Shown piece after piece: positions 6,330-46,027 of a stretch of DNA of 49,509 nucleotides. A program made the translations under genes and the position numbers. This stretch comes from an uncultured Methanosarcinales archaeon (GTDB taxonomy: Archaea; Nanobdellota; Nanobdellia; Woesearchaeales; CAYNLP01): contig CAYNLP010000001.1 of NCBI GenBank assembly GCA_964398115.1, positions 37,590 through 87,098 of the forward strand. Reading direction: 5' to 3'. The notes under the pieces were generated by a model that made no database searches, was not told the origin of the DNA, and saw nothing but the letters and a program-made list of their open reading frames with translations. Within the stretch, counting starts at the first letter, position 1. Every line of letters begins with the position of its first letter.

Positions 6330-6415
6330 TAACGTAAGAAAAATATTGTATGATTTTTAAACATATGCAGAAAATAAGTTTTAAATAAACAACTAATTTT
6401 TCCAACACTTGCAAC

Positions 6416-8712: not shown

Positions 8713-8723
8713 CAAAACTGTAT

Positions 8724-9158: not shown

Positions 9159-9263
9159 CAAAACTTCACCTCTCTCACTCTTCTTGACATTTGTTTGAAA
9201 CCTTATAAAATTTAGTTTTTTCAGAAACATTTATAATAATAATCTATCATTACCAATCATGGG

Positions 9264-9665: not shown

Positions 9666-9702
9666 CAAATTTTATAAACCACTAAATCGTCCCGAAACAC
9701 AC

Positions 9703-11199: not shown

Positions 11200-11295
11200 T
11201 TCATGGTAGAACCTGTAATTAACTATTTCTTGTGCTTACCTAGAATTCTTACTCCACGGCCTACCTATTTCTCTGGTCATCAAAATTAAGAATTA

Positions 11296-11643
11296 TTATT
11301 CGGTTTTAATTGTGTAAGTGGCGATACCACCAGCACCGCAGTCGTACACATACATTACGCCATCTCGTAATATTTGGTAATCTATGAGATCACAATTATC
11401 GTGTAAGATGTTGATACTTTTGCCTGCCACGTTTTCAGACTCATTTAACAGGACAGGGGTGGCATTAGAACCTTCACCTTTCACCACCATCGTCGGTGGT
11501 TTAGGAAGGTTACTTAACTCTCCTGATTTAAAATCAGCAACTCCAGACGATTTATCTGGAGTTTGTTGCGTCATAAAGACCATTCCTACAATTCCTACCA
11601 CTGCCACGACGCTCACTATGTAAAGACTTGTCTTATCACTCAT
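11296..11643 (-). CDS. Membrane-anchored or secreted small protein
   Basis: N-terminal TM LYIVSVVAVVGIVGMVFM followed by a beta-rich C-terminal domain. Confidence 0.5.
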   Translation of the reverse strand: MSDKTSLYIVSVVAVVGIVGMVFMTQQTPDKSSGVADFKSGELSNLPKPPTMVVKGEGSNATPVLLNESENVAGKSINILHDNCDLIDYQILRDGVMYVYDCGAGGIATYTIKTE

Positions 11644-11683
11644 AACGCTACTTAAACATAATAGGTTTTATTTAAACCTTTCG

Positions 11684-12241
11684 TCATCCGTAAAAGCTTA
11701 TTCTTTCTTCCGTACACATAACCGCTAACAACATTTTAGGATTATCTTTCTTTATCCTTTCCAAGCTATCAAGGTCGGTTTGAGAAGCTATGCATCTCTG
11801 ATAAGGATGGCTATGTAAATCAATTATGGTACCAACAGGGCATGGATCGGAAACCACTCTGTAAACATGAGCTGAATGAACTTCTGGCTGCATTACTTCA
11901 CTAACAATATAATTATTTCCTTCAACTCGTCCTTTCAAACAACTCTTAAACTCATGCTCTTGATTATCTCTGTAAAGCTCAACCAATTCATCATAAGTAT
12001 TGCCTTGAAAAACAATCGTTTTATTCCCATAATTAAAATATCCGCTATCTACACTACTGCTTTCAAAAAATCCAGCTATGACATCATGGACTCTAGGACT
12101 GACGATTAGGTAAGAAATGAAGAGAACTGCTAGTATTATTGCCAATCCATAACGCCAATAAGGACTAACGCTTAACCTTTCAGCATCTTCATCAAGTTCT
12201 TCATCAATCTCACGCGCTTCTTTCTCAGGATCAATATCCAT
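11684..12241 (-). CDS. Membrane-anchored JAB/MPN (JAMM) metalloprotease-domain protein
   Basis: Canonical JAMM motif HSHPYQRCIASQTD (HxHx7SxxD) with an upstream Glu (MQPEVH). Acidic N-terminus, then TM GLAIILAVLFISYLIV. ATG 12241 is preferred, and the TTG at 12292 sits 13 nt from tRNA-Pro. Confidence 0.7.
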   Translation of the reverse strand: MDIDPEKEAREIDEELDEDAERLSVSPYWRYGLAIILAVLFISYLIVSPRVHDVIAGFFESSSVDSGYFNYGNKTIVFQGNTYDELVELYRDNQEHEFKSCLKGRVEGNNYIVSEVMQPEVHSAHVYRVVSDPCPVGTIIDLHSHPYQRCIASQTDLDSLERIKKDNPKMLLAVMCTEERISFYG

Positions 12242-12304
12242 AGAAAAAGTAACGTCAACCAAGTTTAAATAAAGGTTGGTATGTTTTCTCAAAAACTACA
12301 AAAG

Positions 12305-12378
12305 AGGGGTTGTAGTGTAGCTTGGCTATCACTCTGCGTTCGGGGCGCAGCAACGGGGGTTCAAATCCTCCCAACCCC
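12305..12378 (+). tRNA. tRNA-Pro (anticodon CGG)
   Basis: Acceptor GGGGTTG/CAACCCC plus A. Anticodon stem CTGCG/CGCAG with loop TTCGGGG. T arm GGGGG-TTCAAAT-CCTCC. 74 nt, no intron, no encoded CCA. Confidence 0.9.
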
Positions 12379-12424
12379 ACTTTCTATAACAATCTTTAAA
12401 AACCAACATTCTATCCTCTAAGTT

Positions 12425-17500: not shown

Positions 17501-18297
17501 CTGCAAGCGATGTAGAAGATTTCATGAACGATCTTAAAAGTTACTGTTCAGGACCTGCTTGTAATGCTATACCAAAAGTTGAAGAGGTAAATAATGGAAA
17601 AGTAATCTTTGTCTCAGGCGAATCAATGGAAGCCAGCCAAGCAGTAGATTACGTAACTGACCAGATAAACCAGGCGAGAGACGAAAGAAAAGAAGAATTA
17701 CAAAACTTAATGGAAAAAGAATTAGACGCTTCCGATCACGTCATGGATGCTATAAGAACAGGTATCAGCTTTTCAAGAGTTGGCAACACCGCCGTGGATA
17801 TATTGGATCCGGATTGGGGATTCCTACAAGACTACAAAGAGATAGTGCCTCAAAAGATTGGTCAGATATTCGACGTACCCCAACAAGCAATAGGAAAAGC
17901 TTGCAAACAAAACTTTGACCTACAAACCACAGGAACTCTACCAGGCGGTCCAAGCGTGAACTTCCAGCCAGCAATGCATTTAGAGGCTTATAAGCAAGCT
18001 AGAGAGCCAGGAAGTGAGTATAGCATCACTGCAGTAGTCACGCCACCCGTCAAGGATAACGCGACTTTCAACATAGTAGCAAAAGGAGAGGAAGAAAAAG
18101 TGGTAGTGGAAGACGTCACGGTAACCAACACGTCAGGTAGTTACAGCAGAACCCGAACTAACACGATCAAGTTCAGAAGTGAAAATCAGTATGATAAAGT
18201 GTGCTTCCGATTTGAAAAAATTCCTGAAAACGGTTACGGCGGTATAAGCCTCGAAAACAACGAATTCTGTAACGAGGTAAAAGAGGTGGAAGTATGA
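14569..18297 (+). CDS. Giant secreted Cys-rich surface protein (Ig-like N-terminal repeats, Cys-rich core, Q/E coiled coil, beta-rich C-terminus)
   Basis: Sec signal MTRKVILGLITIFLLTIPLSSGQ. DxTxPxI-type Ig-domain starts (DNTQPVIENIG, DRTKPEIQSF). Very Cys-dense central region (about aa 520-790). Coiled coil ELQEQAQENQERKQQQREDQEE. No recognised family. Confidence 0.8.
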   Translation: MTRKVILGLITIFLLTIPLSSGQEVTNLELTKYDSKVELVSTQNYRTADMHFTYQGPSFDEVTIDTGNLYVEDDNPVKTISRNNCVKENDAYHCTLTDLRIQPPVQEGNTFQGQINFRFIGDEIHEDRVNYNFEIDNTQPVIENIGTPACEEDCNIGPNGKLKIKIQDEKASFNNGYIFYHVNEGSAYMVDSCNSTTCTASINYNCQQGENVKVDIGDYQNVPSQDDAGNPVRFNEGEITETFTCDRTKPEIQSFTVTSEGTPQITENETVTIQATVKDNSAVLIKANAKSFNEKDKVLTNKCTPNGESQQCTLKFKANKSAYRQARIQFTFEDEAGNTVSTKKQLEILEEATGDVNNLWTVRNVQASPTQVNTKTLQYFEKKVYASTALIPELGGAGVVQQKLQGCQVEEPNMNLEAELMSTGKTFQVKTTLPTSLSQTKKSKIFINCTVETHSKRRTRAVSNSEIDSFSYQINLEDFPDRPEKLQEELKNIQSQNKKWNDYFGTVQKWTNTFTTICRAGQKIKGITGLLGGVEQAFCSNPVTAGAAPSLKPPADATGKSSDALWTGLGKFCKFLTCNTKVQEGLEDWVTSLDFGSGASVDSITSSLGLPKEALFRPENSLVWSAATLCLPGMVSNLQRYRVIQCEYQRCIQQDSIQAGIPSYACREVKSRSTCQFTTGQISKLIPQSLMFQQAGNLVKQALSNPIGLLGAGINTVFSCASKPACSGHVACTITDAVSKVGQYVSMFKGISNTATSMKNGFNSAQQTGPCKAVKEQGDVELYDPVVDSQISESEKSSFRNCQNGMCSNGNIRVGPNGNTELLAYPDDSGNGNLHIKYEGSYRRIERTSESLNIDMTQTIDENNIKSSQAQTITIVRTQPTVTVGMQAGLETTGSDTFSKKQILEKTEAGTTPATEKVLADRDELQEQAQENQERKQQQREDQEESNEAAKQHGQAIGQLNKLENEVERWASNQEDYTASDVEDFMNDLKSYCSGPACNAIPKVEEVNNGKVIFVSGESMEASQAVDYVTDQINQARDERKEELQNLMEKELDASDHVMDAIRTGISFSRVGNTAVDILDPDWGFLQDYKEIVPQKIGQIFDVPQQAIGKACKQNFDLQTTGTLPGGPSVNFQPAMHLEAYKQAREPGSEYSITAVVTPPVKDNATFNIVAKGEEEKVVVEDVTVTNTSGSYSRTRTNTIKFRSENQYDKVCFRFEKIPENGYGGISLENNEFCNEVKEVEV

Positions 18298-20408
18298 AGA
18301 AAGGACAATTCACAATAACAGTGATAATAGCCCTGCTGATTCTAGTAGGAGTTGGTGTTTTCATATACTATACTTCTCAACCCACGGAAAATCCAGAGGT
18401 GGAAACTGAGGTGAAGACTCCTGTAGCGAGTTATGTTTCCAGCTGTACACAAGAAGTAGCTAGGCAAGGATTAGAAAGGATTGGCAGACAAGGCGGTTAC
18501 GTCAATTCGTCAAAACACTATTCCTTAGATAGTAATTTACCAACTACAGAAAAGCCATACTTGCAAGTGGCGCCAGATTCTGAAAGTATAATTCCATACT
18601 GGCATTACCTTCAATCAAGTAACGAGTGTTCAGAAAATTGTAGGTTTGAAAGTGAAGCACCTACGTTGCAGGGATCACAAGATAGTATTCAAGCACAATT
18701 AGAAAGGTATGTTGATAGAAATGTTGAGAATTGTATCGCAAACTTTTCTAGCATTCAAGAAAGCAAGGTTGAAGTCTTAGGTCAGCCACGTTCAAGAGTT
18801 GAATTTCTTGATAACAACGTACAAGTTAAATTGAATTATCCGTTAAGGGTTAAAACAGATACAGAGAACGTTACTTTAGAAGACCACACTGCAGAGTTGG
18901 ATGTCGCGTTTAAGAGGTTGTATAAGACAGCGATTGGTTTGAACAAGTTTAACACAAACGTTGACTTTTTCGAAAATTCTGTTTCAAAAAGCGTGCTTAA
19001 CTCACACTCTATGGGGTTAGATCCTGAAATACCTCCAATGCAAGGTGGTGTCGAGTTTGACAGTGCAGGTCCTTGGTACAAGCCAGATGTTAGAGAGAAA
19101 TTAAAGACTTATTTGAATGATGAAATGAGTAAGGTTAGCGTGGAAGGAACAGTTAACAGCCAAATCGTCCTGACAAACAATACAGTTAGGAATGCTCAAA
19201 ATGACGATCTCTACCTTCCAGGGGAAGGAACTCCTTATAGTTATCAAAAAATTTCTGACCTTGCTATAAGTTTTGAGTACTTGCCGTGGTGGGATTTGTA
19301 TCTTGACATCACTGGTGAGGGAAGCAGTGGACAATTCATAAGACCCCAGCCCATTTGGCCTCCTAGCCTTGGAGGAATGCTACTCCCGTTGCGTATAGAG
19401 AATTTCAATTATGATTTGAGTTATCCAGTAATGGCTACGGTTAGTCAACCAAATGCTTTCGGTGGAGACGGTTATGAACTCCGTTTTGCGGTAGAGTCTA
19501 ACTTAAGAAATAACGATCCTTTGAACTCCAGTTTTTCTTCTACGTTTTTAGAATTGCAAAGCACGGGAACTTATTTGTGTGATCAGCAGCAGAGAAATAG
19601 TGGCGATATTAATATCACGGTAGAGAACGAGGTTACGGGTGAAAGGTTGGAAGGAGCAAGCATACAGTATAGTTGTGGTTCTGAAAGTTGTTATATTGAT
19701 GAGACTAACAGTACTGGTTTCGTTTCAGAAAATTTACCGGTTTGTGGTAATGGATTGTTGACGGTTAACAAGCCAGGTTTTGGAAGTGAAGAAGTCAGCC
19801 TTACCACCCAGGCTGGTCGTTCAGAAAGTTTGACGGTGGAGTTAATGCCTGAGTTTGAAGTTGAGGCGACGGTTATGAAGAAAATGCTTGGTGAGGTTGA
19901 ACCTGAAAGTTATCAGGAAGAGAGTACTTGGAACTTTGTTGGTACTTTAAGAGAGTTAGAACGGGATGAAACCGCTATAATCGTTTTGAGAAAGGTTGAT
20001 AGTGACTACACCCGGGTTGTTGAGTATAATGGTTCTGGCGTTCCTGCAACGGTTTCACTTAGTCCTGGAACTTATGAATTAGAAGGTCACTTGACTAAGA
20101 ATGTTTCTGACAATCCAGTTGTCATTTCTGAAAAAGAAGTTTGTGAAGGAGTTCCTGGATTTGAAGAGTGTGTTGTTTTGAATAGCACTGAAATGAACAA
20201 GACTGTCTTAAGTGGAGGTTTGGATTTGAGTGGTGAAAACAGTGTGGACATTTCCGCTTCTAACCTTCAAAGCGGTAGTATTAGGTTTTACGTCGCAGGA
20301 GTAAATGTTAATGATATTGACAGGCATTTGGACATGACAGTTTTCGGGAAGTATCCTGAAATAACGGGTGATAACTCGGGAGAGTTTAAGCCTGAATTTA
20401 CTGGTTAG
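18294..20408 (+). CDS. Large surface protein with class III (type IV pilin-like) signal peptide
   Basis: N-terminus MKKGQFTITVIIALLILVGVGVFIYY matches the archaeal prepilin KGQ-plus-hydrophobic pattern. The ATG overlaps the upstream stop (ATGA) and follows GAGGTGG. There is a CarboxypepD_reg-like beta-sandwich segment (GDINITVENEVTGERLEGASIQ...LLTVNKPGF). Confidence 0.8.
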   Translation: MKKGQFTITVIIALLILVGVGVFIYYTSQPTENPEVETEVKTPVASYVSSCTQEVARQGLERIGRQGGYVNSSKHYSLDSNLPTTEKPYLQVAPDSESIIPYWHYLQSSNECSENCRFESEAPTLQGSQDSIQAQLERYVDRNVENCIANFSSIQESKVEVLGQPRSRVEFLDNNVQVKLNYPLRVKTDTENVTLEDHTAELDVAFKRLYKTAIGLNKFNTNVDFFENSVSKSVLNSHSMGLDPEIPPMQGGVEFDSAGPWYKPDVREKLKTYLNDEMSKVSVEGTVNSQIVLTNNTVRNAQNDDLYLPGEGTPYSYQKISDLAISFEYLPWWDLYLDITGEGSSGQFIRPQPIWPPSLGGMLLPLRIENFNYDLSYPVMATVSQPNAFGGDGYELRFAVESNLRNNDPLNSSFSSTFLELQSTGTYLCDQQQRNSGDINITVENEVTGERLEGASIQYSCGSESCYIDETNSTGFVSENLPVCGNGLLTVNKPGFGSEEVSLTTQAGRSESLTVELMPEFEVEATVMKKMLGEVEPESYQEESTWNFVGTLRELERDETAIIVLRKVDSDYTRVVEYNGSGVPATVSLSPGTYELEGHLTKNVSDNPVVISEKEVCEGVPGFEECVVLNSTEMNKTVLSGGLDLSGENSVDISASNLQSGSIRFYVAGVNVNDIDRHLDMTVFGKYPEITGDNSGEFKPEFTG

Positions 20409-21300
20409 ATTGGCTCATTATTTGTACGTCTTTTAACCTGTCGCAGTAGTTCTTGTTGTTTTCTTGTTGTACTTCGGTGCAGTATTGAGTTTGTCCTTCT
20501 ACTATAAAGTTCATGTAGCAGTTGTCTCTCGTGGTGGTATCGCTTATTTTTTGGCAGAATTGGGCTCTGTTTGATTCTTTTACTACGAGGAATAGGCAGT
20601 CATCTTTTTGGGTTTGGTTTTCTAGTTTCATGCAGAGTTGTTCTGCTTGGCTTGGTTGTGTGGCTGCTTTGTTGCGTACTTTTTCTAATATGTTGTCTTC
20701 AGTTGATTGATCTTTTGTTTCTTGAGAATTTCTTGGTTGTACTTGGAATGTGAATGAGGAGCTCGCCTTTTTACCGTCGTAGTTTGCTATTGCTTCGAGG
20801 GTGTAAGTTCCAGGCTGGTTGGGAGCTTGGATGCTTCCATCTCTTATCACGGAAGTGCTTACTGCAAATGTTTCTTCATTGCTATAAACCGCTTCTCCAT
20901 TATCATCTAAAATTTTGTAATTAACCACTGCGTCAAACTTTTCTGCATCTCCTAGATTGGTTAGTTTTATACTGTAAGATACTTGTCCGCCCGCTTGGAC
21001 GGTTCCTCCTGTCTTGGTGATTTGAAAGTCTAATAACGCTTCGGATCCTATCATGCCAGCGAATTCTAGAACTCCTATCACTATGCCGGCTGCTAGTATT
21101 AATAAGAGTAGGGTGTAGGCTATGGCAGATTTGGAGATGTGATGTTCGTGCTTTACTGTTTGTCCTGTTCTACTGGCTCTTTTCAACGCGTTGTTAATGG
21201 TTTGATTGTCGTATCCATAGTTTTCTAGATAACTCTTTATGTAATCCTCGCTATATCCTTGGTTGATGAGTTTTTCAACATAATCTGCCAGGTCTGTCAT
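20398..21300 (-). CDS. Bitopic membrane protein: cytoplasmic helical N-domain, TM, Ig/CARDB-like ectodomain, Cys-repeat tail
   Basis: N-terminal DYVEKLINQGYSEDYIKSYLENYGYD and TM AYTLLLLILAAGIVIGVL. Beta-sandwich-like GGQVSYSIKLTNLGDAE...PGTYTLEAIANY. C-terminal repeats of C-x8-10-(D/R)(D/N)-C. Confidence 0.7.
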   Translation of the reverse strand: MTDLADYVEKLINQGYSEDYIKSYLENYGYDNQTINNALKRASRTGQTVKHEHHISKSAIAYTLLLLILAAGIVIGVLEFAGMIGSEALLDFQITKTGGTVQAGGQVSYSIKLTNLGDAEKFDAVVNYKILDDNGEAVYSNEETFAVSTSVIRDGSIQAPNQPGTYTLEAIANYDGKKASSSFTFQVQPRNSQETKDQSTEDNILEKVRNKAATQPSQAEQLCMKLENQTQKDDCLFLVVKESNRAQFCQKISDTTTRDNCYMNFIVEGQTQYCTEVQQENNKNYCDRLKDVQIMSQSNQ

Positions 21301-28959: not shown

Positions 28960-29053
28960 AATACCTATTTCTTTTTCCCTGGTATTAAAATCTTACCACT
29001 GGACATTTGTACGCGTGAGGTATAAAAGGTAAAACAAACTTTTGCTGGTAGAT

Positions 29054-29383
29054 ATGAGCGCGGAAAAATTCAGTCAAAGACATAGAAGCTGGTCGATGGA
29101 AAAAAGTCAAGAAGAACTAGCAAGGGAAGTTATGGATTCTCTTCAAAAGTGTCAAGAAAGGCTGCGTATTGAAGTAGACGGAAAGGTAATCCATGCAGAA
29201 GTCGAGCCTGAACACTTGGTTGAAGACTTACTGGCAGAATTTTTATGGAAACAATTCCCCAACTATTACGTAGTGTTAGAGTCAAGCAGAGGAACGTTTA
29301 CCTCTGGAAGAAACATCGCAGGTGTTTTGAGAATGGAAGAGGAAAGAAAAGATTTAGTAGAAAAACTTCAGCGTAGCATTTGA
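29054..29383 (+). CDS. Hypothetical protein
   Basis: First ATG of a 113-aa ORF. No motif recognised. Confidence 0.45.
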   Translation: MSAEKFSQRHRSWSMEKSQEELAREVMDSLQKCQERLRIEVDGKVIHAEVEPEHLVEDLLAEFLWKQFPNYYVVLESSRGTFTSGRNIAGVLRMEEERKDLVEKLQRSI

Positions 29384-29495
29384 ATTAGACAGATTTAATT
29401 TTTTTTCAGTAATTTTCAAACAACTATCATGATATAACTTATTCATTATCGCAATACTTAAAAAGAAGCTCTATTACTCTTGTTATTGCACATTA

Positions 29496-30035
29496 ATGTT
29501 GGGGGTGCAAAAGGTGTTTTTTGATAGTAATATCTCTGAAAAGTTAGAGAAGATGGAGGCTTCTATAAGGTCTAGTTTTGAAGCCGTTAAGAAGGAAATG
29601 GATAATCATCTGGATAGCATTAATAAGAATACTGATGAAATTCAGCACGTTTATGATTACCTTTCTGAGTTAGAAGCTAAGATGAATAAGTTATCAGAGC
29701 GTATGGAAAAAGTTGAGATGATGAATAATCCGTCTCACGCTGAACCATTGAGTTGTAACGTTAAACTTAACAGGAGAGAGCAAGAAGTTTTCATGGTTCT
29801 CTACGCCTCTGATGATAAAGTAACTACGGATGAAATTGCTAGAAAGCTTGGTTTCAGTGATGAGATGGTGATTAATTACTTGTATAACTTGATAGCTAAA
29901 GGCGTGCCTATTAGAAAAGAATGTATAGGTAACAGGATGGTTCTTTCTTTGAATAAGAAGTTTGAGAATTTACAGGCTAAGAAGAACATTTTAGATATTG
30001 AAGAGTCTGTAGCAAAAGAAGTTATGAAAGCATGA
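29496..30035 (+). CDS. Coiled-coil protein with C-terminal winged-helix DNA-binding domain
   Basis: N-terminal heptad-rich region. C-terminal REQEVFMVLYASDDKVTTDEIARKLGFSDEMVINYLYNLIAKGVPI. GTG 29514 after GGGGG is an alternative start. Confidence 0.6.
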   Translation: MLGVQKVFFDSNISEKLEKMEASIRSSFEAVKKEMDNHLDSINKNTDEIQHVYDYLSELEAKMNKLSERMEKVEMMNNPSHAEPLSCNVKLNRREQEVFMVLYASDDKVTTDEIARKLGFSDEMVINYLYNLIAKGVPIRKECIGNRMVLSLNKKFENLQAKKNILDIEESVAKEVMKA

Positions 30036-30302
30036 TTATTTCATCTTTTTAGTTAACTTCTTTATTCGATCTAGGTATTTGCCAGCTTTAGCGTGGTTTC
30101 CTCTTTTAACTTGTGAATGATACTTTCTAAGATATTTTTCAATCTTTTTAGCAGTTTTATATCCAACATCATCTCTTGAAAGGTCATTAACCTTCCTAAA
30201 CTTATCAAGTATTGCTTCAGAAAGTTCCATTAATTCTTCTCTTTCGTACAGTTCTATTAGTTGTGTCAATTGTGCTATTGTTTTTGCGGTTTTGTTTGCC
30301 AT
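30036..30302 (-). CDS. Small basic helical protein
   Basis: 88-aa K/R-rich ORF. No motif recognised. Confidence 0.45.
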   Translation of the reverse strand: MANKTAKTIAQLTQLIELYEREELMELSEAILDKFRKVNDLSRDDVGYKTAKKIEKYLRKYHSQVKRGNHAKAGKYLDRIKKLTKKMK

Positions 30303-30348
30303 AAGGGTACTTTTTCTAATAGTTAATATAAAAAAGTTGTTTTTCTAA

Positions 30349-30400
30349 AACTTTTAATCAATAACTATATATAATATTTCTATAAATTATAATAAAAAAC
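30349..30400 (+). repeat. Left copy of a 52-bp imperfect direct repeat bracketing the recombinase cassette
   Basis: AACTTTTAATCAAT (14/14), then 10 nt (6/10), then AATATTTCTA (10/10), then 18 nt (13/18). That is 43/52 identical to 32215-32266 by hand alignment, in the same register. Confidence 0.6.
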
Positions 30401-30527
30401 AGTAAATTCCTAACACAAATAATGACTATAAATAGGAAAACCAATACATAGAATAACCAATAAAAAAACACTAAAACATATATTATAACCAATAAATTTA
30501 TAAACCAAAAACATAATAAAAAATCAC

Positions 30528-30893
30528 ATGACACCAAACAAAAAAGAAAACTCAATATTGAAATTAAAAGGATTCCTTTCATTCCTCATACTACACGAAT
30601 TAAGAGGAGAAAAGCTCTGCGGCGAAGACTTAGCATTAAGAATAGGACGAAGAAAAGGATCCGTATTAACCCCTGGAACAATTTATCCAGCATTAAAAAA
30701 ACTACACAAAAAAGGCCTTGTCAAATACAGGAAAGATGGAAGAAAAAAATACTATAAATTAACCGAAAAAGGAGAAGACGAGTTAGAGTCATCTTATAAA
30801 AAATTCAGTAATTATTTCTATGGATTAAAAAATAAGATTAAGAGAGAGTGGTATGAGCCATTACCAGAGCACGAATCTTTTTATAATAATTAA
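30528..30893 (+). CDS. PadR-family winged-helix transcriptional regulator
   Basis: FLILHELRGEKLCGEDLALRI...LTPGTIYPALKKLHKKGLVKYRKDGRKKYYKLTEKGEDEL is a canonical PadR N-domain. Confidence 0.85.
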   Translation: MTPNKKENSILKLKGFLSFLILHELRGEKLCGEDLALRIGRRKGSVLTPGTIYPALKKLHKKGLVKYRKDGRKKYYKLTEKGEDELESSYKKFSNYFYGLKNKIKREWYEPLPEHESFYNN

Positions 30894-31006
30894 TCTATGA
30901 TAAAAAACTTTTATTAAAATAAATATAGTTTTTGATTAAAACTTATAATCGTAAAATAACAATGTTTATCGAAAACGTTAAATAAAGAGAAAGGAAAAAG
31001 ATAAAC

Positions 31007-31261
31007 ATGGTAAAAAATGAAGTAAAACTTTGGATCTCCACATTTTTATTCTTAGTAGCGATAGCCACAATAATAGCAATAAAACCTATGCCCAACAAAG
31101 CAGAAGTTGTAGAGCAAAACATAGCAGGACAAGCCACATGTATGGAAAGAGATAGCGGCTGGATATGTTGCTATGGACACGCTACAGATACAGCAATAAA
31201 GTTTGACGGCAACAAAGCACATATTAGACATTCACCATCAAAAGTTCAAGAAGTTTGCTAA
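31007..31261 (+). CDS. Small membrane-anchored Cys-containing protein
   Basis: TM LWISTFLFLVAIATIIAI followed by CMERDSGWICCYGH. The SD is weak. Confidence 0.4.
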   Translation: MVKNEVKLWISTFLFLVAIATIIAIKPMPNKAEVVEQNIAGQATCMERDSGWICCYGHATDTAIKFDGNKAHIRHSPSKVQEVC

Positions 31262-31342
31262 ACATCGTCAACTTTCACCAATTTCATCTATAAGGCCGGA
31301 CTTATTCAACAAAAGAAGCACTTTCTAATCAACTAAACAATA

Positions 31343-31423
31343 AACGTAATACTTTATACAAAGTATAACGTTAAACGTAACAAGATATAGCAAAAACGTA
31401 ACATTTTTAAGAAGTATTACGTT
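31343..31423. promoter_or_regulatory. Array of five ACGTAA/TTACGT-core motifs forming two imperfect palindromes, ending 10 nt before the recombinase ATG
   Basis: AACGTAATACTTTATACAAAGTATAACGTT (31343-31372) pairs at 13 of 15 positions. AACGTAACA occurs at 31374 and 31395, and an inverted TTACGTT at 31417-31423. Confidence 0.55.
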
Positions 31424-31433
31424 ATATAGTGAT

Positions 31434-32063
31434 ATGAGCAAAGAAAACAAGACACCAAAGAAAAAAGGACACGATCGCAGCCAATTTCACCTAACCGAAG
31501 ACCAAATAAAACAATTAATTAAAACAACAGAAAAACTGCGAGATAAATTAATAATTAAATTACTAGCATACTGTGGCCTAAGAAGATTCGAAGTAGCAAA
31601 AATAAAACTAGAAGATATCGACTTAGAAGATCGCAAGATCAGAATCGAAGGCAAGAAAAATATTGAAAGACTGGCAACAATATTCGCAGATAGCCTTTTA
31701 GAAGATCTAAAAATGTATATCCGCTATGTGCTGGATGGAAGAGAAAAAGGGTACCTCTTCCCGGCAAAATCCATCCTCAATGAATCAGGACACATTTCAG
31801 AAACACAAATAAATAGAATAGTCGCAAAAGCAGGAGATAGAGCTGGTTTGAAAAATCCCGTCCCAGAACTAAAAAACATTAACCCGCACCTTCTAAGACA
31901 TAGTTGTGCCCGAATATTGAAAGATAGAGGTCTTAGTTTAGAAGTAGTTCAAAAGGTATTAGGCCACCTCTCATATCAAACAACAATGGATTTGTATGGT
32001 ACAAAAAGTATTTCTGAAATGGATGAAGAGCTTCAAGAAAAAATGGGAGATGCTTTTGAGTAA
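31434..32063 (+). CDS. Tyrosine recombinase/integrase, short form (catalytic domain only)
   Basis: Arg I in LAYCGLRRFEV, HxxR in HLLRHSCA, His in VLGHLS and catalytic Tyr in TTMDLYG. It is only 209 aa and Arg I falls near residue 50, so there is no normal N-terminal core-binding domain. Confidence 0.85.
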   Translation: MSKENKTPKKKGHDRSQFHLTEDQIKQLIKTTEKLRDKLIIKLLAYCGLRRFEVAKIKLEDIDLEDRKIRIEGKKNIERLATIFADSLLEDLKMYIRYVLDGREKGYLFPAKSILNESGHISETQINRIVAKAGDRAGLKNPVPELKNINPHLLRHSCARILKDRGLSLEVVQKVLGHLSYQTTMDLYGTKSISEMDEELQEKMGDAFE

Positions 32064-32214
32064 TCCCTCTAATAGCAAGAATTTATGATTAAATATTTTT
32101 GTCATAATTTGAAATTTTTGTAAAATCCAGCAAAAAGTTTTGTTTAAAACTTGTAATCAAAAACAAAATCATTAATTAATTGTTTGCCCAATATATAGGA
32201 TATACAATAAATAT

Positions 32215-32266
32215 AACTTTTAATCAATTATAATAAATAATATTTCTAAAATCTTTAATAAAAAAT
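32215..32266 (+). repeat. Right copy of the 52-bp imperfect direct repeat
   Basis: See 30349-30400. It ends 122 nt before ATG 32388. Confidence 0.6.
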
Positions 32267-32387
32267 TAAATTTTTCAAAAAATGGTATTAGACATTATTT
32301 CTTTTCAATATAAACAAAAAATAGTTTTTCTAAATACGCGCGTTAGAAAGATTTAAATAAGAATTCAGGGGAATAAAACACTAGAAT

Positions 32388-32981
32388 ATGAAGGTTTTAC
32401 AATCGAACAGTAGATTAAAAATATTTATTCTATCTGTTATATCTACATTGTTCATCCCAAGTGTAGCAGGTGAAACAGGTCTCGATCCATTAAACAATGT
32501 TGTACGTATGATTGCTGAATTCTTCACAATACCTGCCTTAAACAATGAAGAAGTACAACTTGGCATCATAAAATTCGGAATATTCCTAATAGTTTTCGCC
32601 ATAGCCCATCTTGCACTCAGGAACGTTTGGGGAAGCGGATATGGCGGAGGAGCTAATCAAGCAAGAGCAGCCAAAGTCATAGCTTTTGTTGTAGCATTTA
32701 TTGGAAGCTTCTTCATGCCCAACGGATGGGCATTAGCACTAGGAGGAGTAATTGCAGGCCTCGTTATATTCTTACTCGTAGGTGGAGGAGCATACTATGC
32801 CACTATGAAGCTTAAAGATGACTGGCTACAAAATCTCTTCGGACTTATAATAATACTGCTCTTAATCTGGCTGACATCCACTTTTAGAGGCTACTTACAC
32901 GGAGCTAATGTTGGAGTAGGAACTGCACCAGTCTTCGTATTTGGAGCTAGGAGGTTGTTCAAATGGCTCTCTCACCAATAA
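32388..32981 (+). CDS. Polytopic membrane protein with Sec-type signal, Gly-rich loops, unknown family
   Basis: Signal IFILSVISTLFIPSVAGE followed by four or five hydrophobic helices. First gene of a four-gene operon. Confidence 0.65.
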   Translation: MKVLQSNSRLKIFILSVISTLFIPSVAGETGLDPLNNVVRMIAEFFTIPALNNEEVQLGIIKFGIFLIVFAIAHLALRNVWGSGYGGGANQARAAKVIAFVVAFIGSFFMPNGWALALGGVIAGLVIFLLVGGGAYYATMKLKDDWLQNLFGLIIILLLIWLTSTFRGYLHGANVGVGTAPVFVFGARRLFKWLSHQ

Positions 32982-35107
32982 TGGTAGAAGTTATGACAAT
33001 CGTAGTCGACTGGATGCTCTTACTCCTACTTATCCTTTTCATAGTCAAAATAGTGCAAATGATTGGAGCATTTCGAGGAAGCGGAGGAGAAAGTTGGTTT
33101 AGCTCAGAAGAGGAATCAGAGCCTACATTTGAAGAAGAACCCACAATTGAGGAAGAACCTACATTTGAAGAAGAACATCCTGAACCGGAAGAAGCTGAAG
33201 GTGCTCCAGGCACGGAAGACGGCCCTCTTGATTGGGATAACCCTGGCACAATACAAGTAGAGGTACAGAATGAAAACGGCGATCCCGTCCAAGGAGCTGA
33301 AGTAGTTATACAACCGGCAAATGTTGAAAGGAACTTCTTTGGCGGAAGAAAGTCAGGATCGGAAGCAAGAACAGGAAGAACAAACGAAGAAGGATTATTC
33401 CCCCCAGAACCTATGCAGATAGGAAGCGGAAGAGTACTCGTATCAGTAAACAAGCCCGGATTTTTCAGCAGAAAAAAGTTTTTTACTGGAAAAGAAGGAG
33501 AAGATTACATTTCTGAAAAAACTTGGGTAGTGAATCCCGACGATCACACTCATGTTCCCTTAGTTCTAGCTAGAAGCGAAGAAGGAGAAGAAACAGGAGT
33601 TATAAAAGGAAGAGTAATTGACGCGTCACAATACAAAGAAAGCGTAGCTATCAAAGATCAGGCAGAAAAGATCGTAAGAGAGGAAAGATACGGAAAGATA
33701 GGTGTGGAAGGTGCAAAAGTGATGCCTGTAGATTTCGATAATAACCCTATATATGACTCTGTCATGACAGGAAAAGACGGATCCTTCACTATCGAAGTTC
33801 CTCTAAAGAGAAAGTTTAACGTTTACGCAAAGAAAGGCGAAAAAGATGGTTGGCATATTGCAGGAACCTCAACTAATGACTTACTTTTAACACCTAACCA
33901 AAAATCAAGAGAAGATATAGTAATCCCCATAAAAGAAGAATCTCCAGTACAGGAACCAGATGAAGAAAGCAGAACACCTGAAAAGAGAGAAAAAGAAGAA
34001 CCAAAAGAGAAAGAAGGAAGAGAAGAGGTAACAAGAAGATCTAAAGAAGCTAAGGGGTACAAGGTTGAACCCAAAGTTGTGCCTAACAACGAACCAGCCC
34101 AAACAATAAACAAAAAAGAAAGACTGGCCCCTGTGGGAAGAAAACCCGGGAAAGAAAGTATGATAAAAGAAGGTTCTTCCGCAACCAATATAGAGTTAAG
34201 CTTTAGATTTCAAGGATTGAAAGAAAATAATCAACCTGTCAGGTCCACACCACTCCTGTTCTTTTGGGACTTAAACGAAGAAAGAGACGCAACAAATGAA
34301 TTCATAGAAGACCCAAACGAAGTAATAGCAAATATTGGAGGAACTGACATAAAATACAGACAAACCTCGAAGAACAAAACAATACCCTCTAAGGATAACG
34401 GAGAAAAAGGCGGAGGGCAAAAGATAGTTCCACGATACAATATACAATCAGATATAAGACCCGACAAATACCGTCTATACTGTGTAATGCTACAACCCAC
34501 AAATCCAAACAACAACCAATATTTAAAACCAATAGCTAGTCACAAAGTCCCGAAAGAACTAGTTAATCTGCTAAGATCAGCAGAAAGAGGAGATAACAAA
34601 GCCAAGAAGATTCTTAACAAATTTGTATACGACTTTGATTACATAGACATTGTATACAAATACGGTCAAGGAAAAGACAAACCCACCATGGAAGATACAC
34701 AAGAATCCATCAACTACTTCTTCCAAGATGAATATCCAGAAGATAAAGACTGGAGATTTAACCCTAATGAAAGCCTCGGATGGAAATCATCTGAATATGA
34801 GAAAAGACTAAACCTGATAGTGAAAAATATGGCCACAGCCTACAACGGCGTAGGAGCACAAGTAAAGGCCGAAGAAAGACGTAATCTAGAAAAAGCATAC
34901 CAATTCATGAAAAACTACCAGAAATGGCAAGAATACAGCAAAGAAGGAAATCAAGAGAAGAAAAAAGAAATAGAAGAAAAGATACTACAACAAGCCGATA
35001 AAGATAGCATGACCGAAATAACAGGAAAATATCTAAACAAATGGGTGAAATATTTCGCAAAGAAACTAAAGAGAAGGTTCAAAGAAAAGCAATCATACAA
35101 CGAATAA
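32963..35107 (+). CDS. Large bitopic protein: N-terminal TM, acidic EPTFEE repeats, CarboxypepD_reg-like beta-sandwiches, K/E-rich linker, unknown C-terminal domain
   Basis: AGGAGG lies 8 nt before the ATG, and the gene overlaps the upstream gene by 19 nt. Beta-sandwich-like segments GTIQVEVQNENGDPVQGAEVVIQPA and GAKVMPVD...TGKDGSFTIEVP. Charged linker EKREKEEPKEKEGREE. Confidence 0.75.
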   Translation: MALSPIMVEVMTIVVDWMLLLLLILFIVKIVQMIGAFRGSGGESWFSSEEESEPTFEEEPTIEEEPTFEEEHPEPEEAEGAPGTEDGPLDWDNPGTIQVEVQNENGDPVQGAEVVIQPANVERNFFGGRKSGSEARTGRTNEEGLFPPEPMQIGSGRVLVSVNKPGFFSRKKFFTGKEGEDYISEKTWVVNPDDHTHVPLVLARSEEGEETGVIKGRVIDASQYKESVAIKDQAEKIVREERYGKIGVEGAKVMPVDFDNNPIYDSVMTGKDGSFTIEVPLKRKFNVYAKKGEKDGWHIAGTSTNDLLLTPNQKSREDIVIPIKEESPVQEPDEESRTPEKREKEEPKEKEGREEVTRRSKEAKGYKVEPKVVPNNEPAQTINKKERLAPVGRKPGKESMIKEGSSATNIELSFRFQGLKENNQPVRSTPLLFFWDLNEERDATNEFIEDPNEVIANIGGTDIKYRQTSKNKTIPSKDNGEKGGGQKIVPRYNIQSDIRPDKYRLYCVMLQPTNPNNNQYLKPIASHKVPKELVNLLRSAERGDNKAKKILNKFVYDFDYIDIVYKYGQGKDKPTMEDTQESINYFFQDEYPEDKDWRFNPNESLGWKSSEYEKRLNLIVKNMATAYNGVGAQVKAEERRNLEKAYQFMKNYQKWQEYSKEGNQEKKKEIEEKILQQADKDSMTEITGKYLNKWVKYFAKKLKRRFKEKQSYNE
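33122..33175 (+). repeat. Three tandem 18-nt coding repeats (EPTFEE / EPTIEE / EPTFEE)
   Basis: cctacatttgaagaagaa at 33122 and 33158 is identical. The middle copy is cccacaattgaggaagaa. Confidence 0.8.
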
Positions 35108-35120
35108 AGGTGGCAAAGTC

Positions 35121-36056
35121 ATGTTTAAATTAAAAAGTTGGAGAGGCGAAAAAGGACTCATAAAACACGCCAGAAGAGAAGCTAGAAGACTTATCAGAAA
35201 AGATCTAGACCGAATACAAGACACTTGGAAAGAACTAGAACAAGCAACCGAAAATAGAGACGCTGACAAAGTACAAGAAGCCGCTTTCAAACTTATAAAC
35301 AAAGACTACCCCAAATTTTTTGACAGGATAGAAAGCATATTCCAAGAAGGACTAATTAAAGAAGAACATAAACACATCACAAACATTTACAACATAACAG
35401 TCATCTTAGAAGAGTTGAAAGAACAAGCTCAAAATAAAGGGTTACAATCCATAGTTCAACTTATAGAAGAAGACAAAAACAAATTAAAAGAAATAAGGAA
35501 AGAAATAAGAAGAGTCCTACAAAAGAGAGCGTTAAACAGTTTTGAAAGATTAAGTAATGAACAAAAGCCTTTCACAGCATCAGGTGAAGAAGAAGATGAA
35601 ATAGTGCTAGCAAGAAACATACGAGGATTCGTCAAAAAACTGGTAGGTCCTGAAAAAGACATAGCCAAAAGAGAAGATCGAGCAGAAGACATAATAAGAA
35701 AAATCGACATTTCAAGTGTAGAAAGCGAAGAAGACATAAAAGAAGTTAAGAAAAAACTGGAGAAAGCCAAGAAAGACCTTGATAAACTTCATAAATCAAT
35801 CGTGAAAGAACGCAAACTTGAAAACTGGTTGATATTTTATATAACAATGGACTTATACGAATACATAGGTGGCAGCGACTTACCTAAGCTTATTCAAAAA
35901 ATTTATCAACTTCACGAAGAAAAAGGATTTCCTAAACCCCATATAGAAAACGTGCGACAGGAATACGCTAAAGTAATACAACAAGTCAAACAATTAGCAG
36001 GAGAAATGGAAAAACTCACACGAGACGCATTAGGCGATCTCAAAAGACACACTTAA
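35121..36056 (+). CDS. Cytoplasmic coiled-coil protein, unknown family
   Basis: AAGGTGG SD, 13-nt gap from the upstream gene, and 311 aa rich in K/E heptads. No TM helix and no enzymatic motif. Confidence 0.7.
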   Translation: MFKLKSWRGEKGLIKHARREARRLIRKDLDRIQDTWKELEQATENRDADKVQEAAFKLINKDYPKFFDRIESIFQEGLIKEEHKHITNIYNITVILEELKEQAQNKGLQSIVQLIEEDKNKLKEIRKEIRRVLQKRALNSFERLSNEQKPFTASGEEEDEIVLARNIRGFVKKLVGPEKDIAKREDRAEDIIRKIDISSVESEEDIKEVKKKLEKAKKDLDKLHKSIVKERKLENWLIFYITMDLYEYIGGSDLPKLIQKIYQLHEEKGFPKPHIENVRQEYAKVIQQVKQLAGEMEKLTRDALGDLKRHT

Positions 36057-36071
36057 AGGAGGTAACTAATT

Positions 36072-36482
36072 ATGAACAAGAAAGGAGTTGTTTTCACAAG
36101 ACCAAGGGACACGTTAAGCTTTTTCATAGGACTTTTCGTAACCGCCGTAGGACTGATACCCTTACTAAATAGTTGGGGATTGATAGGCTTCAACATACCA
36201 TTGATATCGAACTTAAGCGCCAAAGTCTTGATATGGGCAGTTGCTATCTTCGGAGCATATGTCCTTATAGACGGCTTGATAGAACCACCTATGCACAGCC
36301 TTCACTGGATCCTGATAATCGCTGGTGGCGTCATGATGATAACCGGTTTGCTTCCTATCTTAAACAGCATGGGAGTGATAAGCTTTAGCCTTTCATTCCT
36401 AGAAGGCAACACCATGATTTACCGCATCTTGCTAAGCATTGAAGGCATAAGCCTCGTAATCGGCGGATTAACCATGCACTAA
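36072..36482 (+). CDS. Four-TM membrane protein with internal two-fold duplication
   Basis: AAGGAGGT SD. The halves share GLIPLLNSWGLIGFNIP versus GLLPILNSMGVISFSLS. Confidence 0.7.
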   Translation: MNKKGVVFTRPRDTLSFFIGLFVTAVGLIPLLNSWGLIGFNIPLISNLSAKVLIWAVAIFGAYVLIDGLIEPPMHSLHWILIIAGGVMMITGLLPILNSMGVISFSLSFLEGNTMIYRILLSIEGISLVIGGLTMH

Positions 36483-36506
36483 GTCGGAATTTTTCCGACA
36501 TTTTTT
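36483..36506 (+). terminator. Hairpin plus T-tract immediately after the operon stop codon
   Basis: GTCGGAA-ttt-TTCCGAC is a perfect 7-bp stem (36483-36499), followed by A then TTTTTT (36501-36506). Confidence 0.55.
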
Positions 36507-36546: not shown

Positions 36547-36966
36547 ATGATTAAGAAATACGCTACACTAACCACACTCTTATTAACAGCGTGTGGCGGT
36601 GAAGAAGTAAGTCTTCCAAGTCAGTTAAGAAATCCCGACATATTCCTCTCTGGAAAAAGAGGTAGTCACTGGTACGTCTTAGCAGAAGATGAAGACAACG
36701 GATGTTCACTCGCTTACAGTTTGAAAAAAGAAGACGAAAGAAACGTCAGAATTTACAGCGGTCGCGAATGCACCAATATAACACTATACGCTAACGTGAA
36801 GTCAAAACAAAAACTAGACTATATAGTTAAATTTGGCAAAGTCAAAGGCGAAGTCGTAGAAAAATTAAACCTAAACTCTTTAAGACTTTCAGATGAACAA
36901 GCCAGTTCGATAAGGAAACAATACACTAGATGGTCCAGTCTAATCAAAGAAAAACACATCCCATAA
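36547..36966 (+). CDS. Small secreted protein with lipobox
   Basis: Signal MIKKYATLTTLLLTACGG. Confidence 0.55.
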   Translation: MIKKYATLTTLLLTACGGEEVSLPSQLRNPDIFLSGKRGSHWYVLAEDEDNGCSLAYSLKKEDERNVRIYSGRECTNITLYANVKSKQKLDYIVKFGKVKGEVVEKLNLNSLRLSDEQASSIRKQYTRWSSLIKEKHIP

Positions 36967-44902: not shown

Positions 44903-46027
44903 TTATTCTTCTTCAAAATCTTTGGTTAACTGTTCAAGTAACTCTTCTGTATCTTCCGCTTCTTTACTTTTCTTCTTTTCCTTTACTTCACTTTCCGCTT
45001 CTTCACTCGCCTCTTCTAATACTTCACCCATTTCTTCTTCTGAAACACTATCTTTTTCCTCAATTTCATCAATTATTTCTTTCTGCTCTTCCTCATCTGG
45101 TGCTTGCATCATTTCAAACAGTTCATCTTTCTCTTCTTCTGCTTCTTCATCAGAGCCACCTAATGTTATTGATATAAGGCCACCTTCTTCCTCTCTACGT
45201 TTACGTTTTTCTTCCTCAACTTTTTCCCTTTCTTTTTCTATATAGTCTTTATCTAAAGCCAGCTTCACAGCTTTTTCCCTGCATTCCTTCAAAAAATTTT
45301 TTGGATTACCTTCAGTTTTCTGATACAAAGATTCAACCATTTCTTCTTGAAACGGAAAAATACCTTCTTGACCATAATTTTTAATCCTTTTATGAAGTAA
45401 ATCTTTCATATTCTCATATTCCAAACCATCTAAGGAAATATCCAACCAATCTTTTTCGTGAACGTGTCTTATATTACTTTCTCGAATTTCTTTTTCAGTA
45501 CCCGCCGCTATTATTTGCACACCTATTTTATTCTTGTAGAAATATTTGAATAAAGAAAGATACCTTTCAGGCAAACCGCCAACGTCATCTATCAATATCA
45601 GTAATCTTTGACTTTCTTCTAACTTAGAATAAATGAACTTTCCAACTTTTTCCAACCTTAATTTCTCCTGTTTTTTAGCAACATTTTTTTCATAAACATT
45701 CATCAACGGCAAGGTTAATCCTTTTATCAAATCTCTTTCTTTATTTAGCTCTGAAGCATTTATGTAAGCTACTCTAACCTTATCCTTATGATTTTTAAGC
45801 TGCGACTTTATCCATTTCAAAACGGTAGTTTTCCCTGTACCTTCTTCTCCAGAAATAGTTCCGAATGGATGTTTTTCAAGAACGAAATAGTTTAAGTCTT
45901 TTCTCTCTTCACCATATCCTGCAAAGAAATCATCAATGGGTTGCGGAATCTCCGATTGAAAAGGATTCTTCTTAAATCCAAGTTTCTTAGTCCAGTCAAA
46001 AACAAAATCATCCTCTGGCATGGTCAA
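44903..46027 (-). CDS. ExeA-like AAA ATPase with long poly-acidic C-terminal tail
   Basis: N-terminal FGFKKNPF, Walker A GEEGTGKT and Walker B LLILIDDV. The C-terminal roughly 100 aa are E/D/K-rich. Confidence 0.7.
   Translation of the reverse strand: MTMPEDDFVFDWTKKLGFKKNPFQSEIPQPIDDFFAGYGEERKDLNYFVLEKHPFGTISGEEGTGKTTVLKWIKSQLKNHKDKVRVAYINASELNKERDLIKGLTLPLMNVYEKNVAKKQEKLRLEKVGKFIYSKLEESQRLLILIDDVGGLPERYLSLFKYFYKNKIGVQIIAAGTEKEIRESNIRHVHEKDWLDISLDGLEYENMKDLLHKRIKNYGQEGIFPFQEEMVESLYQKTEGNPKNFLKECREKAVKLALDKDYIEKEREKVEEEKRKRREEEGGLISITLGGSDEEAEEEKDELFEMMQAPDEEEQKEIIDEIEEKDSVSEEEMGEVLEEASEEAESEVKEKKKSKEAEDTEELLEQLTKDFEEE

Follow-up and report, generated by a model that had tools for sequence, protein, structure and literature searches.

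We describe a group of four adjacent genes, g1 to g4, located in a 49,509-nucleotide (nt) stretch (hereafter: the window) of contig CAYNLP010000001.1 from a Woesearchaeales archaeon. These genes make up a real, conserved and lineage-restricted module that matches no known system and is novel by exclusion. An initial annotation, made from the sequence alone, had found no recognizable family motif in the four products and regarded them as a candidate envelope system. They remain unassignable after profile and structure searches, apart from generic β-sandwiches in the product of g2. As a tentative reading, we suggest that the module encodes a PadR-controlled sub-membrane scaffold or membrane-maintenance complex at the inner face of the membrane, merely analogous to the Psp/Lia systems.

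Operon layout and conservation of the module

The genes, taken from the list of open reading frames (ORFs), and their presumed expression signals are as follows:

32352-32359, plus strand: TATA-like element TTTAAATA, about 32 nt ahead of the g1 ATG, putative promoter read from the sequence
32388-32981, plus strand: g1, 197 amino acids (aa)
32963-35107, plus strand: g2, 714 aa
35121-36056, plus strand: g3, 311 aa
36072-36482, plus strand: g4, 136 aa
36483-36506, plus strand: terminator-type hairpin and T-run directly after the g4 stop codon, with a 7-bp stem and a 3-nt loop

The first two genes overlap by 19 nt, and the following ones are separated by gaps of 13 nt (35108-35120, between g2 and g3) and 15 nt (36057-36071, between g3 and g4). 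The Shine-Dalgarno sequence (SD) of g2 is AGGAGG (32950-32955, 7 nt ahead of the ATG) and those of g3 and g4 are AAGGTGG and AAGGAGGT, respectively, while the start of g1 has none. This fits an archaeal operon whose first gene is leaderless and would be transcribed from the putative promoter at 32352-32359; a TATA-like element ahead of such a gene is the usual archaeal pattern. The hairpin behind g4 reads GTCGGAA-TTT-TTCCGAC (36483-36499) and is followed by ATTTTTT. In a scan of 6.5 kb, four terminator-like sites were seen against 4.8 expected, which means that the hairpin alone is not above chance; it is credible because of its placement right behind the last stop codon. From the spacing, the SDs and the terminator, g1-g4 are predicted to form one operon. 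The plus-strand ORFs, the overlap, the two gaps, the three SDs and the hairpin with its T6 run had all been reported in the initial annotation, and each can be read directly in the letters. Behind the terminator lies a further gene, g5 (36547-36966), which is outside the conserved module; it codes for 139 aa with a lipobox-like LLTAC, and its only homologue, a weak one (E=1.3e-4), was found in the closest relative, L008 (446-883).

Loci that carry the module were collected by fetching the contigs of g2 matches and by scanning genomes with an alignment of the g4 family (A8); a second family alignment (A6) scanned over genome contigs gave no match. About 12 loci were found, in metagenome-assembled genomes (MAGs) labelled Woesearchaeota, Nanoarchaeota or Nanoarchaeia, with a G+C content (GC) of 36-55%. 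Two of the carriers (L008 and L004) are third party annotation (TPA) MAGs titled 'uncultured Methanosarcinales archaeon', probably wrongly. The order of g1, the N-terminal part of g2 (g2N, as a split or fused gene), one or two variable 'middle' proteins, g3 and g4 is kept in L002, L004, L006, L007, L009, L012/L016, L013 and L017, and partial versions of the module are present in L001, L008, L011, L014 and L018. Moreover, four homologues are g1-g2 fusions: P0007, P0008, P0016 and a 383-aa protein of L009. The synteny check thus bears out the proposal that the four genes belong together: far from never being found together in other genomes, they recur in a kept order in about 12 assemblies, with g1/g2 fusions. 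In L006, four minus-strand genes (8658-13802; 529, 345, 465 and 366 aa, no Pfam matches recorded) split the fused g1-g2 from g3-g4.

The surroundings of the module recur as well. The window also codes for MCM, LonB, L35Ae, an archaeal-type TyrRS and MetRS. The gene g4 is convergent with that of L35Ae in the window, L002, L006, L007, L008, L009, L013 and L017, i.e. in clades of either type, split or fused, and UPPS, AMMECR1, TyrRS, TctA and LonB also recur near the module. In one sub-clade, two conserved genes after g4 replace L35Ae (L004 14677-16018, L011 739-2050, L012 2887-4081, L014 419-1664 and L016 3091-4285). The first encodes an acidic, helical protein of about 180-220 aa with a proline-rich tail, a K/R-R-x-F-G-F end and a weak match to BAR_3 (E=1e-3), and the second a coiled-coil protein of about 220 aa; both may be extra components of the module.

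The initial annotation had also proposed a comparison with viral and plasmid gene sets, in case the genes were cargo of a mobile genetic element. Scans of IMG/VR with g2N, the C-terminal part of g2 and g4 found no relative, tblastn of g2 and g4 against GenBank phages and PLSDB plasmids gave no match, and there was none in PHROGs. Because such relatives are absent from these collections and the chromosomal spot is kept, we regard the four genes as a vertical chromosomal module rather than cargo, which appears to be restricted to the Woesearchaeota/Nanoarchaeia lineage and inherited with the chromosome.

Architecture of the four proteins

The N-terminus of the g1 product is basic; a hydrophobic signal-like segment, four transmembrane (TM) segments and glycine-rich loops (GSGYGGGAN, GGGAYY) were also recognized. 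A profile built from three orthologues, with g1 left out, recovers it at E=1.6e-19, and g1 and the N-terminus of the fusion protein P0007 align collinearly (E=7e-6). Searches of Pfam, PHROGs, NCBIfam, PADLOC and PDB sequences found no family match for g1. In a test for VirB2-like type IV secretion pilins (profiles T4SS_pilin or TrbC, with a VirB4-type ATPase as neighbour), a single sub-threshold match, to T4SS_pilin (E=0.2), was obtained in one of five homologues, and none of the loci encodes an ATPase.

The product of g2 is a single-pass membrane protein with one N-terminal TM helix. Its start at 714 aa is preferred to the database start (P0001, 704 aa, 10 codons later), because an SD is present and the N-termini of the orthologues align from residue 1. 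The helix is flanked by acidic residues on its N-side and by basic residues on its C-side. The following elements were delineated:

32969-33073, plus strand: TM helix of g2, aa 3-37, corresponding to the fifth platform TM in the fused homologues
33118-33176, plus strand: acidic tandem repeat of the EPTFEEE type, 18-nt period, three copies, in a disordered linker (aa 38-76)
33230-33574, plus strand: β-sandwich 1, aa 90-204, LDxxNPG-type, conserved core of the g2N family
33593-33931, plus strand: β-sandwich 2, aa 211-323, with a helical insertion
33947-34129, plus strand: K/E-rich disordered linker, aa 329-389, according to AlphaFold
34130-35104, plus strand: C-terminal region, aa 390-714, a poorly conserved part followed by helices (531-706)

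Hence the initial descriptions of g1 (signal-bearing and polytopic, with glycine-rich loops) and g2 (bitopic, with acidic repeats and a K/E linker) hold, and so does the claim that g2 has at least two CarboxypepD_reg-like β-sandwiches: two real ones are seen in the AlphaFold2 model and in a Foldseek search run with it. Both were modelled at a pLDDT of about 75-96, and the model has the seven-strand prealbumin/CnaB-like sandwich fold. At the sequence level, aa 96-172 match Pfam CarboxypepD_reg (PF13620) with E=1.4e-6 and 29.0 bits, under the cut-off of 32.3 bits, and the matches of the g2 homologues to this family are faint or weak. Foldseek retrieved 66 matches from the PDB at E<=1e-3; tandem CnaB, pilin and TIE domains, NOMO and SlaB headed the list, which also included SdrD. 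Against viral structures, it returned generic Ig-like domains of tail fibres only. A domain of the β-sandwich 2 type was found in P0008, P0016, L012 and L016, and weakly in a large protein without signal peptide of L002 (E=3.3e-4).

An exhaustive HMMER pass with g2 over 1.84 billion cluster representatives returned 13 proteins, including g2 itself. Apart from g2 itself and P0011, these matches cover aa 1-360 only; P0011, a PKD-repeat protein, shares a short match with aa 423-468 that is likely spurious. The C-terminal region of g2 has no homologue among the same 1.84 billion representatives. Among the module loci, aa 503-609 are weakly similar to the C-terminal part of the 834-aa protein of L007 (E=6e-4) and to that of the large protein of L002 (E=0.013). 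When g2, g3 and a trimmed profile of the g2N family were used in word-indexed searches, nothing but the query itself or P0015 came back, and the low-complexity linkers probably swamped the search with g2. Neither g2 nor any of the middle proteins matched Toastrack (DUF4097/DUF2154/DUF2807) in Pfam. P0001, the copy of g2 in the database, bears the precomputed Pfam family label PF27546; a full-text literature search for this label yielded nothing, nor did one on DPANN archaea and CarboxypepD_reg.

The product of g3, introduced in the initial annotation as a 311-aa cytoplasmic protein, is indeed soluble as judged from its lack of TM segments; it contains 41% K/R/D/E and is predicted, at low confidence, to be all-helical. 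Its N-terminus looks hydrophobic or amphipathic and is followed by a basic cluster. A profile of seven positional orthologues, with g3 left out, matches g3 over its full length (E=4.3e-10). No family-level match was found for g3 in Pfam, PHROGs, NCBIfam, PADLOC or PDB searches, and its family profile retrieved only coiled-coil noise from PDB sequences (haemagglutinin HA2, keratin). The idea that g3 is an obvious paralogue of the helical C-terminus of P0008-type proteins was discarded after a negative hhalign comparison (E=0.48). A defence system is not supported either: PADLOC, run on all four proteins, gave only one weak match, of g3 to PDLC00746 (E=0.0038).

The product of g4 is the best conserved component, with 54-68% identity to the closer orthologues. 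It has four TM segments, and its halves align with each other at E=3e-5, which makes it a protein of two hairpin repeats, as the initial annotation had proposed. Its conserved motifs comprise an N-terminal FTRPRDT (RPRD), a middle-loop DGxIEPPMH, a C-terminal TMH and an invariant Glu inside TM4; the polar motifs RPRD, DGxIEPPMH and TMH are predicted to face the cytoplasm. The g4 of the window has no Pfam match at all. Among its orthologues, five of nine match LiaI-LiaF-like_TM1 (E between 0.022 and 1.9, at most 15 bits against a cut-off of 27), seven of nine match DUF308 (E>=0.58), and the best match to SPW has E=9e-4 and 20 bits against 31.5. None of the g1, g3, g4 and middle-protein orthologues reached a Pfam threshold.

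Membrane side and possible function

In the arrangement that we propose, the signal-like segment and four TM segments of g1 would form, together with the single TM of g2, one 5-TM platform, and g4 would provide a second small platform made of two 2-TM hairpins. The remainder of g2 would hang from the platform as a chain comprising the disordered acidic linker, two Ig-like β-sandwiches, the charged linker and the helical C-terminal region, with g3 as a soluble all-α partner. If, as seems probable, the soluble parts are all on the cytoplasmic face, the assembly would be a scaffold beneath the membrane rather than a structure of the cell surface. Its role would most likely be structural, i.e. to organize, stabilize or reshape the membrane from inside, possibly in relation to stress, because none of the components has a signature of an enzyme, ATPase or transporter. 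In the clade of the window, its expression would probably be controlled by the adjoining PadR-type repressor, through a box common to the upstream regions of the PadR gene and g1.

The cytoplasmic placement is deduced from the number of TM segments in the fused forms, from the positive-inside pattern, from the signal-less partners and from the cytoplasm-like composition. All four fused homologues have the signal-like segment and five TM segments ahead of the β-sandwich, with the basic loops predicted inside. The middle proteins of L002, L007, L009 and L013, as well as all g3 proteins, have neither signal peptides nor TM segments, and the g2 of the window carries, on its TM-anchored chain, regions related to the signal-less middle proteins of L007 and L002. 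With 34% charged residues, the soluble part of g2 is comparable to MetRS and MCM, and it contains two N-X-S/T sequons against 4.1 expected; of two L004 proteins, the fusion protein P0008 has four against 3.8 expected, while a genuine surface protein has 82, with 35 expected. On these grounds the bulk of g2 and g3 are probably, though far from certainly, on the cytoplasmic face, and the reading of the module as a trans-envelope or surface machine is weakened.

Several observations speak against a sub-membrane scaffold or limit the confidence in it. The topology was derived solely by hydropathy and charge counting, and a further TM segment might exist behind TM4 in some of the split g1 proteins, where a stretch is weakly hydrophobic. 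The sandwiches of g2 best match extracellular stalks (Gram-positive pilins, TIE, SdrD, NOMO, SlaB), which argues for the outside, and the g2-like protein of L013 has an FN3-like domain, a typically extracellular fold, and a P/Q-rich linker. Some of the models are of low confidence: for the C-terminal region of g2 (about 325 aa), AlphaFold2 gives helices only, and the single-sequence model of g3 has a pLDDT of 51.7, good for helix boundaries only. Finally, no component reaches the threshold of any family, and the function is proposed from architecture and context alone.

The strongest competitor stays close to the initial annotation, which had expected a trans-envelope machine or a structure for surface or host contact. 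In this surface or pseudoperiplasmic form, g2 would be an N-terminally anchored stalk, comparable to an inverted SlaB or a pilin-type stalk, with its sandwiches and helical end pointing outwards from a base made of g1 and g4; the complex would serve envelope architecture or contact with the host. This reading draws on the Foldseek matches of the tandem sandwich, nearly all of which are extracellular stalk or pilin proteins, including the S-layer protein SlaB (E=1.2e-5) and NOMO, on the FN3-like domain and P/Q-rich linker of L013, on the signal-peptide-like N-terminus of g1 and on the fast divergence of the soluble parts beside a conserved g4, as is often seen with exposed proteins; contact with a host cell is also plausible for a DPANN symbiont. 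However, the TM count of the four fused homologues leads inside, the TM of g2 has acidic residues before it and basic ones behind it, neither the middle proteins nor g3 have an export signal, and the composition is cytoplasm-like, without the enrichment in sequons of the real surface protein of L004. The stalk-type fold stands, yet its placement outside the cell is doubtful, and we consider a surface structure possible but distinctly unlikely.

The extracellular-type folds and the missing signal peptides could be reconciled if g1 and g4 were a membrane channel through which g3 and the signal-less middle proteins are exported or assembled outside the cell. At the loci, a pair of conserved polytopic membrane proteins is indeed always accompanied by signal-less partners, g4 has its invariant TM4 Glu and conserved loop motifs, and one g1 homologue shows the faint resemblance to T4SS_pilin mentioned above. 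Against such a dedicated export or assembly machine, there is no ATPase or other energy module at any of the about 12 loci, families of secretion systems are not matched, and the pilin match is a lone one below threshold, which renders this explanation improbable.

We give equally little credence to the possibility that g3 is an extremely diverged polymer of the ESCRT-III/PspA superfamily, recruited by g1, g2 and g4. The gene context, with a PadR regulator and a 4-TM protein, is Psp/Lia-like, and inspection by eye gives the impression that the N-termini of the g3 orthologues (M-x-F/W-x-K-F-F, a basic helix and an 'EAEKKGS' turn) resemble the helix-1/2 tip of ESCRT-III/PspA proteins; the best hhalign stretch between g3 and ESCRT-III is collinear with this N-terminal region. 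Nonetheless, these comparisons, made with hand-entered reference sequences, are not significant (ESCRT-III: probability 0.2%, E=0.26; PspA/Vipp1: E=0.47). Neither PspA_IM30 nor Snf7 in Pfam is matched at E<=1 across eight g3 orthologues, the PDB profile search with g3 gave coiled-coil noise only, and g3 is about 80 residues longer than typical ESCRT-III/PspA members. The same negative comparisons also count against the likeness of the proposed scaffold to the Psp/Lia systems.

Regulation, mobility and relation to known systems

Upstream of g1, the window contains a PadR gene, a recombinase gene and a set of short repeats, of which the box M1 is defined by the sequence TCTAAAACTTTTAATCAA:

30344-30361, plus strand: box M1 upstream of the PadR gene, 18 nt, AT-rich, core TTTTAA[T/G]CAA
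30528-30893, plus strand: PadR-family winged-helix regulator, 121 aa, Pfam PadR E=1.3e-11, candidate regulator of the operon
30904-30946, strand not assigned: inverted pair of M1-like boxes (repeats I1 and I2) just downstream of the PadR gene
31434-32063, plus strand: tyrosine recombinase, 209 aa, catalytic domain only, Pfam Phage_integrase E=1.7e-32 over aa 20-188
32143-32160, 32210-32227 and 32245-32262, plus strand: three M1-like boxes in the g1 upstream region

A PadR gene also precedes the module in L002, L017 and L018, and the adjacency of PadR, recombinase and g1 is confined to the split-gene clade (the window, L002, L017 and L018). The recombinase of the window keeps the R, H-x-x-R, H and Y residues. 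A SAM-like N-terminal domain is missing from it, whereas the positional orthologues (L002, L006, L017 and L018; 267-282 aa) possess one. In L017 the recombinase gene is on the opposite strand, in L006 it is 5 kb away, and in L004 and L009 it is not adjacent. The question posed in the initial annotation, whether a recombinase is always adjacent, is therefore answered in the negative: it adjoins the module in one sub-clade only, and not in L004 or L009.

Box M1 occurs in the window in five copies against 1.06 expected, solely around PadR, the recombinase and g1. With up to three mismatches, the box of the window has four sites in L002 (55% GC) against 0.00 expected, one pair ahead of PadR and the other ahead of g1 (6376-6437 and 9133-9195) and none elsewhere. 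A second motif, TAACCAATAAA, recurs likewise upstream of PadR and the g1 operon in both genomes. Weaker versions of the pattern are found in L018, where a 39-nt repeat with the M1 core lies upstream of PadR and of g1 (260-298, 1928-1966), and in L017, with copies of the core between the recombinase and g1 (4864-5373); L006 has an inverted pair of boxes upstream of the recombinase (294-364). Since the M1 boxes are multi-copy and common to two promoter regions across distant genomes, they are more likely to be operators of a small PadR-linked regulon than att sites, and PadR is the obvious candidate to bind them. On the other side, L001, L004 and L009 have no such box ahead of the module, and the box could serve the recombinase or another regulator instead of PadR. 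No dif- or att-like unique site was identified near the recombinase.

The initial annotation had taken the position of the four genes, directly downstream of a putatively excisable recombinase cassette, as a hint of accessory or switchable status; the PadR-recombinase cassette with its flanking repeats would then excise, invert or integrate, and thereby move or switch the genes. A tyrosine recombinase does stand directly upstream in the window, L002, L017 and L018, in the opposite orientation in L017, the PadR and recombinase genes are flanked by direct and inverted repeats, the recombinase of the window is a short form with the catalytic domain only, and the region from 29 to 32.4 kb is AT-rich. 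However, the chromosomal context is constant over genomes of 36-55% GC, L35Ae adjoins the module in the split and fused clades alike, and the location is thus not variable as expected for mobile cargo. No att repeats surround the whole unit: the repeats bracket PadR and the recombinase, plus, in L002, the housekeeping gene UPPS. The boxes are multi-copy and operator-like, lying upstream of two genes. The inverted M1-like arms bracket the PadR-recombinase segment and leave the putative g1 promoter (TATA, 32352-32359) outside. There is also no tRNA target nearby, the sole tRNA of the window being at 12306, the recombinase is not adjacent in L004 and L009, and no relatives were found in the viral, phage and plasmid collections. 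Consequently, a mobile or switchable status is very improbable, and this part of the initial annotation is mostly wrong. A simple invertible segment as the explanation of the inverted recombinase in L017 was rejected, as a single flip would not produce the observed arrangement of recombinase and M1 boxes.

The AT-rich region (29000-32400; about 31% GC, compared to 38-40% elsewhere in the window) consists of small regulator genes and extended intergenic stretches; besides PadR, it includes an HTH_11 protein (29496-30035), an 88-aa minus-strand ORF and an 84-aa ORF with a TM segment (31007-31261). A neighbourhood of an HTH gene and a recombinase was seen in L006, too. Farther away, the region 14569-21300 contains two large ORFs without Pfam matches (1242 aa with 32 Cys, and 704 aa with 11 N-X-S/T sequons against 7.6 expected), beside an opposite-strand protein weakly similar to DUF11; both are probably real surface proteins. 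Minus-strand positions 44903-46027 encode a 374-aa STAND-type NTPase (AAA_22 and, more weakly, nSTAND_NTPase5 and NB-ARC; 373 residues scanned), a possible defence or signalling gene.

Among known systems, the bacterial envelope-stress modules of the Psp/Lia type, with PspA/LiaH among their members, come close to the proposed scaffold in their logic. The partners include a PadR-like winged helix-turn-helix (wHTH) protein, the 4-TM LiaI-LiaF-TM and the intracellular, membrane-proximal Toastrack domain (PMC11237479). The module similarly combines a PadR wHTH, a 4-TM anchor, a tethered β-rich domain predicted to be sub-membrane and a soluble helical protein, with no enzyme or ATPase. In contrast to Psp/Lia, it has neither PspA_IM30/Snf7 nor Toastrack, LiaI-LiaF-like_TM1 appears only below threshold in g4 orthologues, the β-domain is a CarboxypepD_reg/CnaB-like sandwich instead of a β-helix, g1 has no counterpart, and the lineage is DPANN. 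We therefore regard the resemblance as an analogy of logic, not as membership.

The other likenesses concern single proteins. Residues 90-204 and 211-323 of g2 resemble CarboxypepD_reg/CnaB/transthyretin-like stalks (Gram-positive pilins, TIE of B. anthracis, the B-repeats of SdrD, NOMO of the BOS complex and SlaB of Sulfolobus) in fold and in their tandem arrangement on a flexible chain, and NOMO and SlaB share with g2 the anchoring by a single TM. Unlike stalk domains, the g2 sandwiches score below the Pfam threshold, follow an N-terminal anchor, are predicted to be cytoplasmic and have neither a sortase motif nor an S-layer partner, and the helical insertion in sandwich 2 is conserved within the g2 family only. 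With the SlaB-type S-layer anchor, the fold alone matches (8qox_B, E=1.2e-5): g2 has its TM at the N-terminus, no cleavable signal and no C-terminal TM, and a SlaA-like partner is absent. The two homologous 2-TM hairpins of g4 recall SPW, YiaAB, DUF308/HdeD and LiaI-LiaF-like_TM1, which its orthologues match weakly but recurrently; however, all these matches are under the curated cut-offs (8-20 against 25-31.5 bits), and g4 has motifs of its own, FTRPRDT, DGxIEPPMH and the TM4 Glu. The neighbouring PadR and Xer-type recombinase are clear Pfam members, and the order PadR-recombinase-module is found in four genomes; here the differences from Xer-type systems are the missing SAM-like N-domain in the recombinase of the window and repeats that behave as multi-copy operator boxes.

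DPANN archaea have tiny genomes, and a module of 4-6 genes that an entire order has retained at a single locus is therefore probably not dispensable. Conserved clusters of uncharacterized function are common in these genomes, and to our knowledge the membrane organization, division and host attachment of DPANN archaea are largely unknown. The module might represent a new archaeal machine of Woesearchaeota-type DPANN, sub-membrane or membrane-spanning, turned on by a PadR-type sensor and acting either as a scaffold for membrane shaping or repair, with an origin independent of ESCRT-III/PspA, or as the membrane base of the apparatus for cell-cell contact or cytoplasmic bridges in these symbionts, although we would call this a guess with the chances rather against it. 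In any case, four orphan ORFs have become a defined set of families, with about 12 loci, Rosetta-stone fusions, conserved g4 motifs and a candidate operator box, and with testable predictions: a cytoplasmic topology, control by PadR and co-assembly of g1, g2 and g4.

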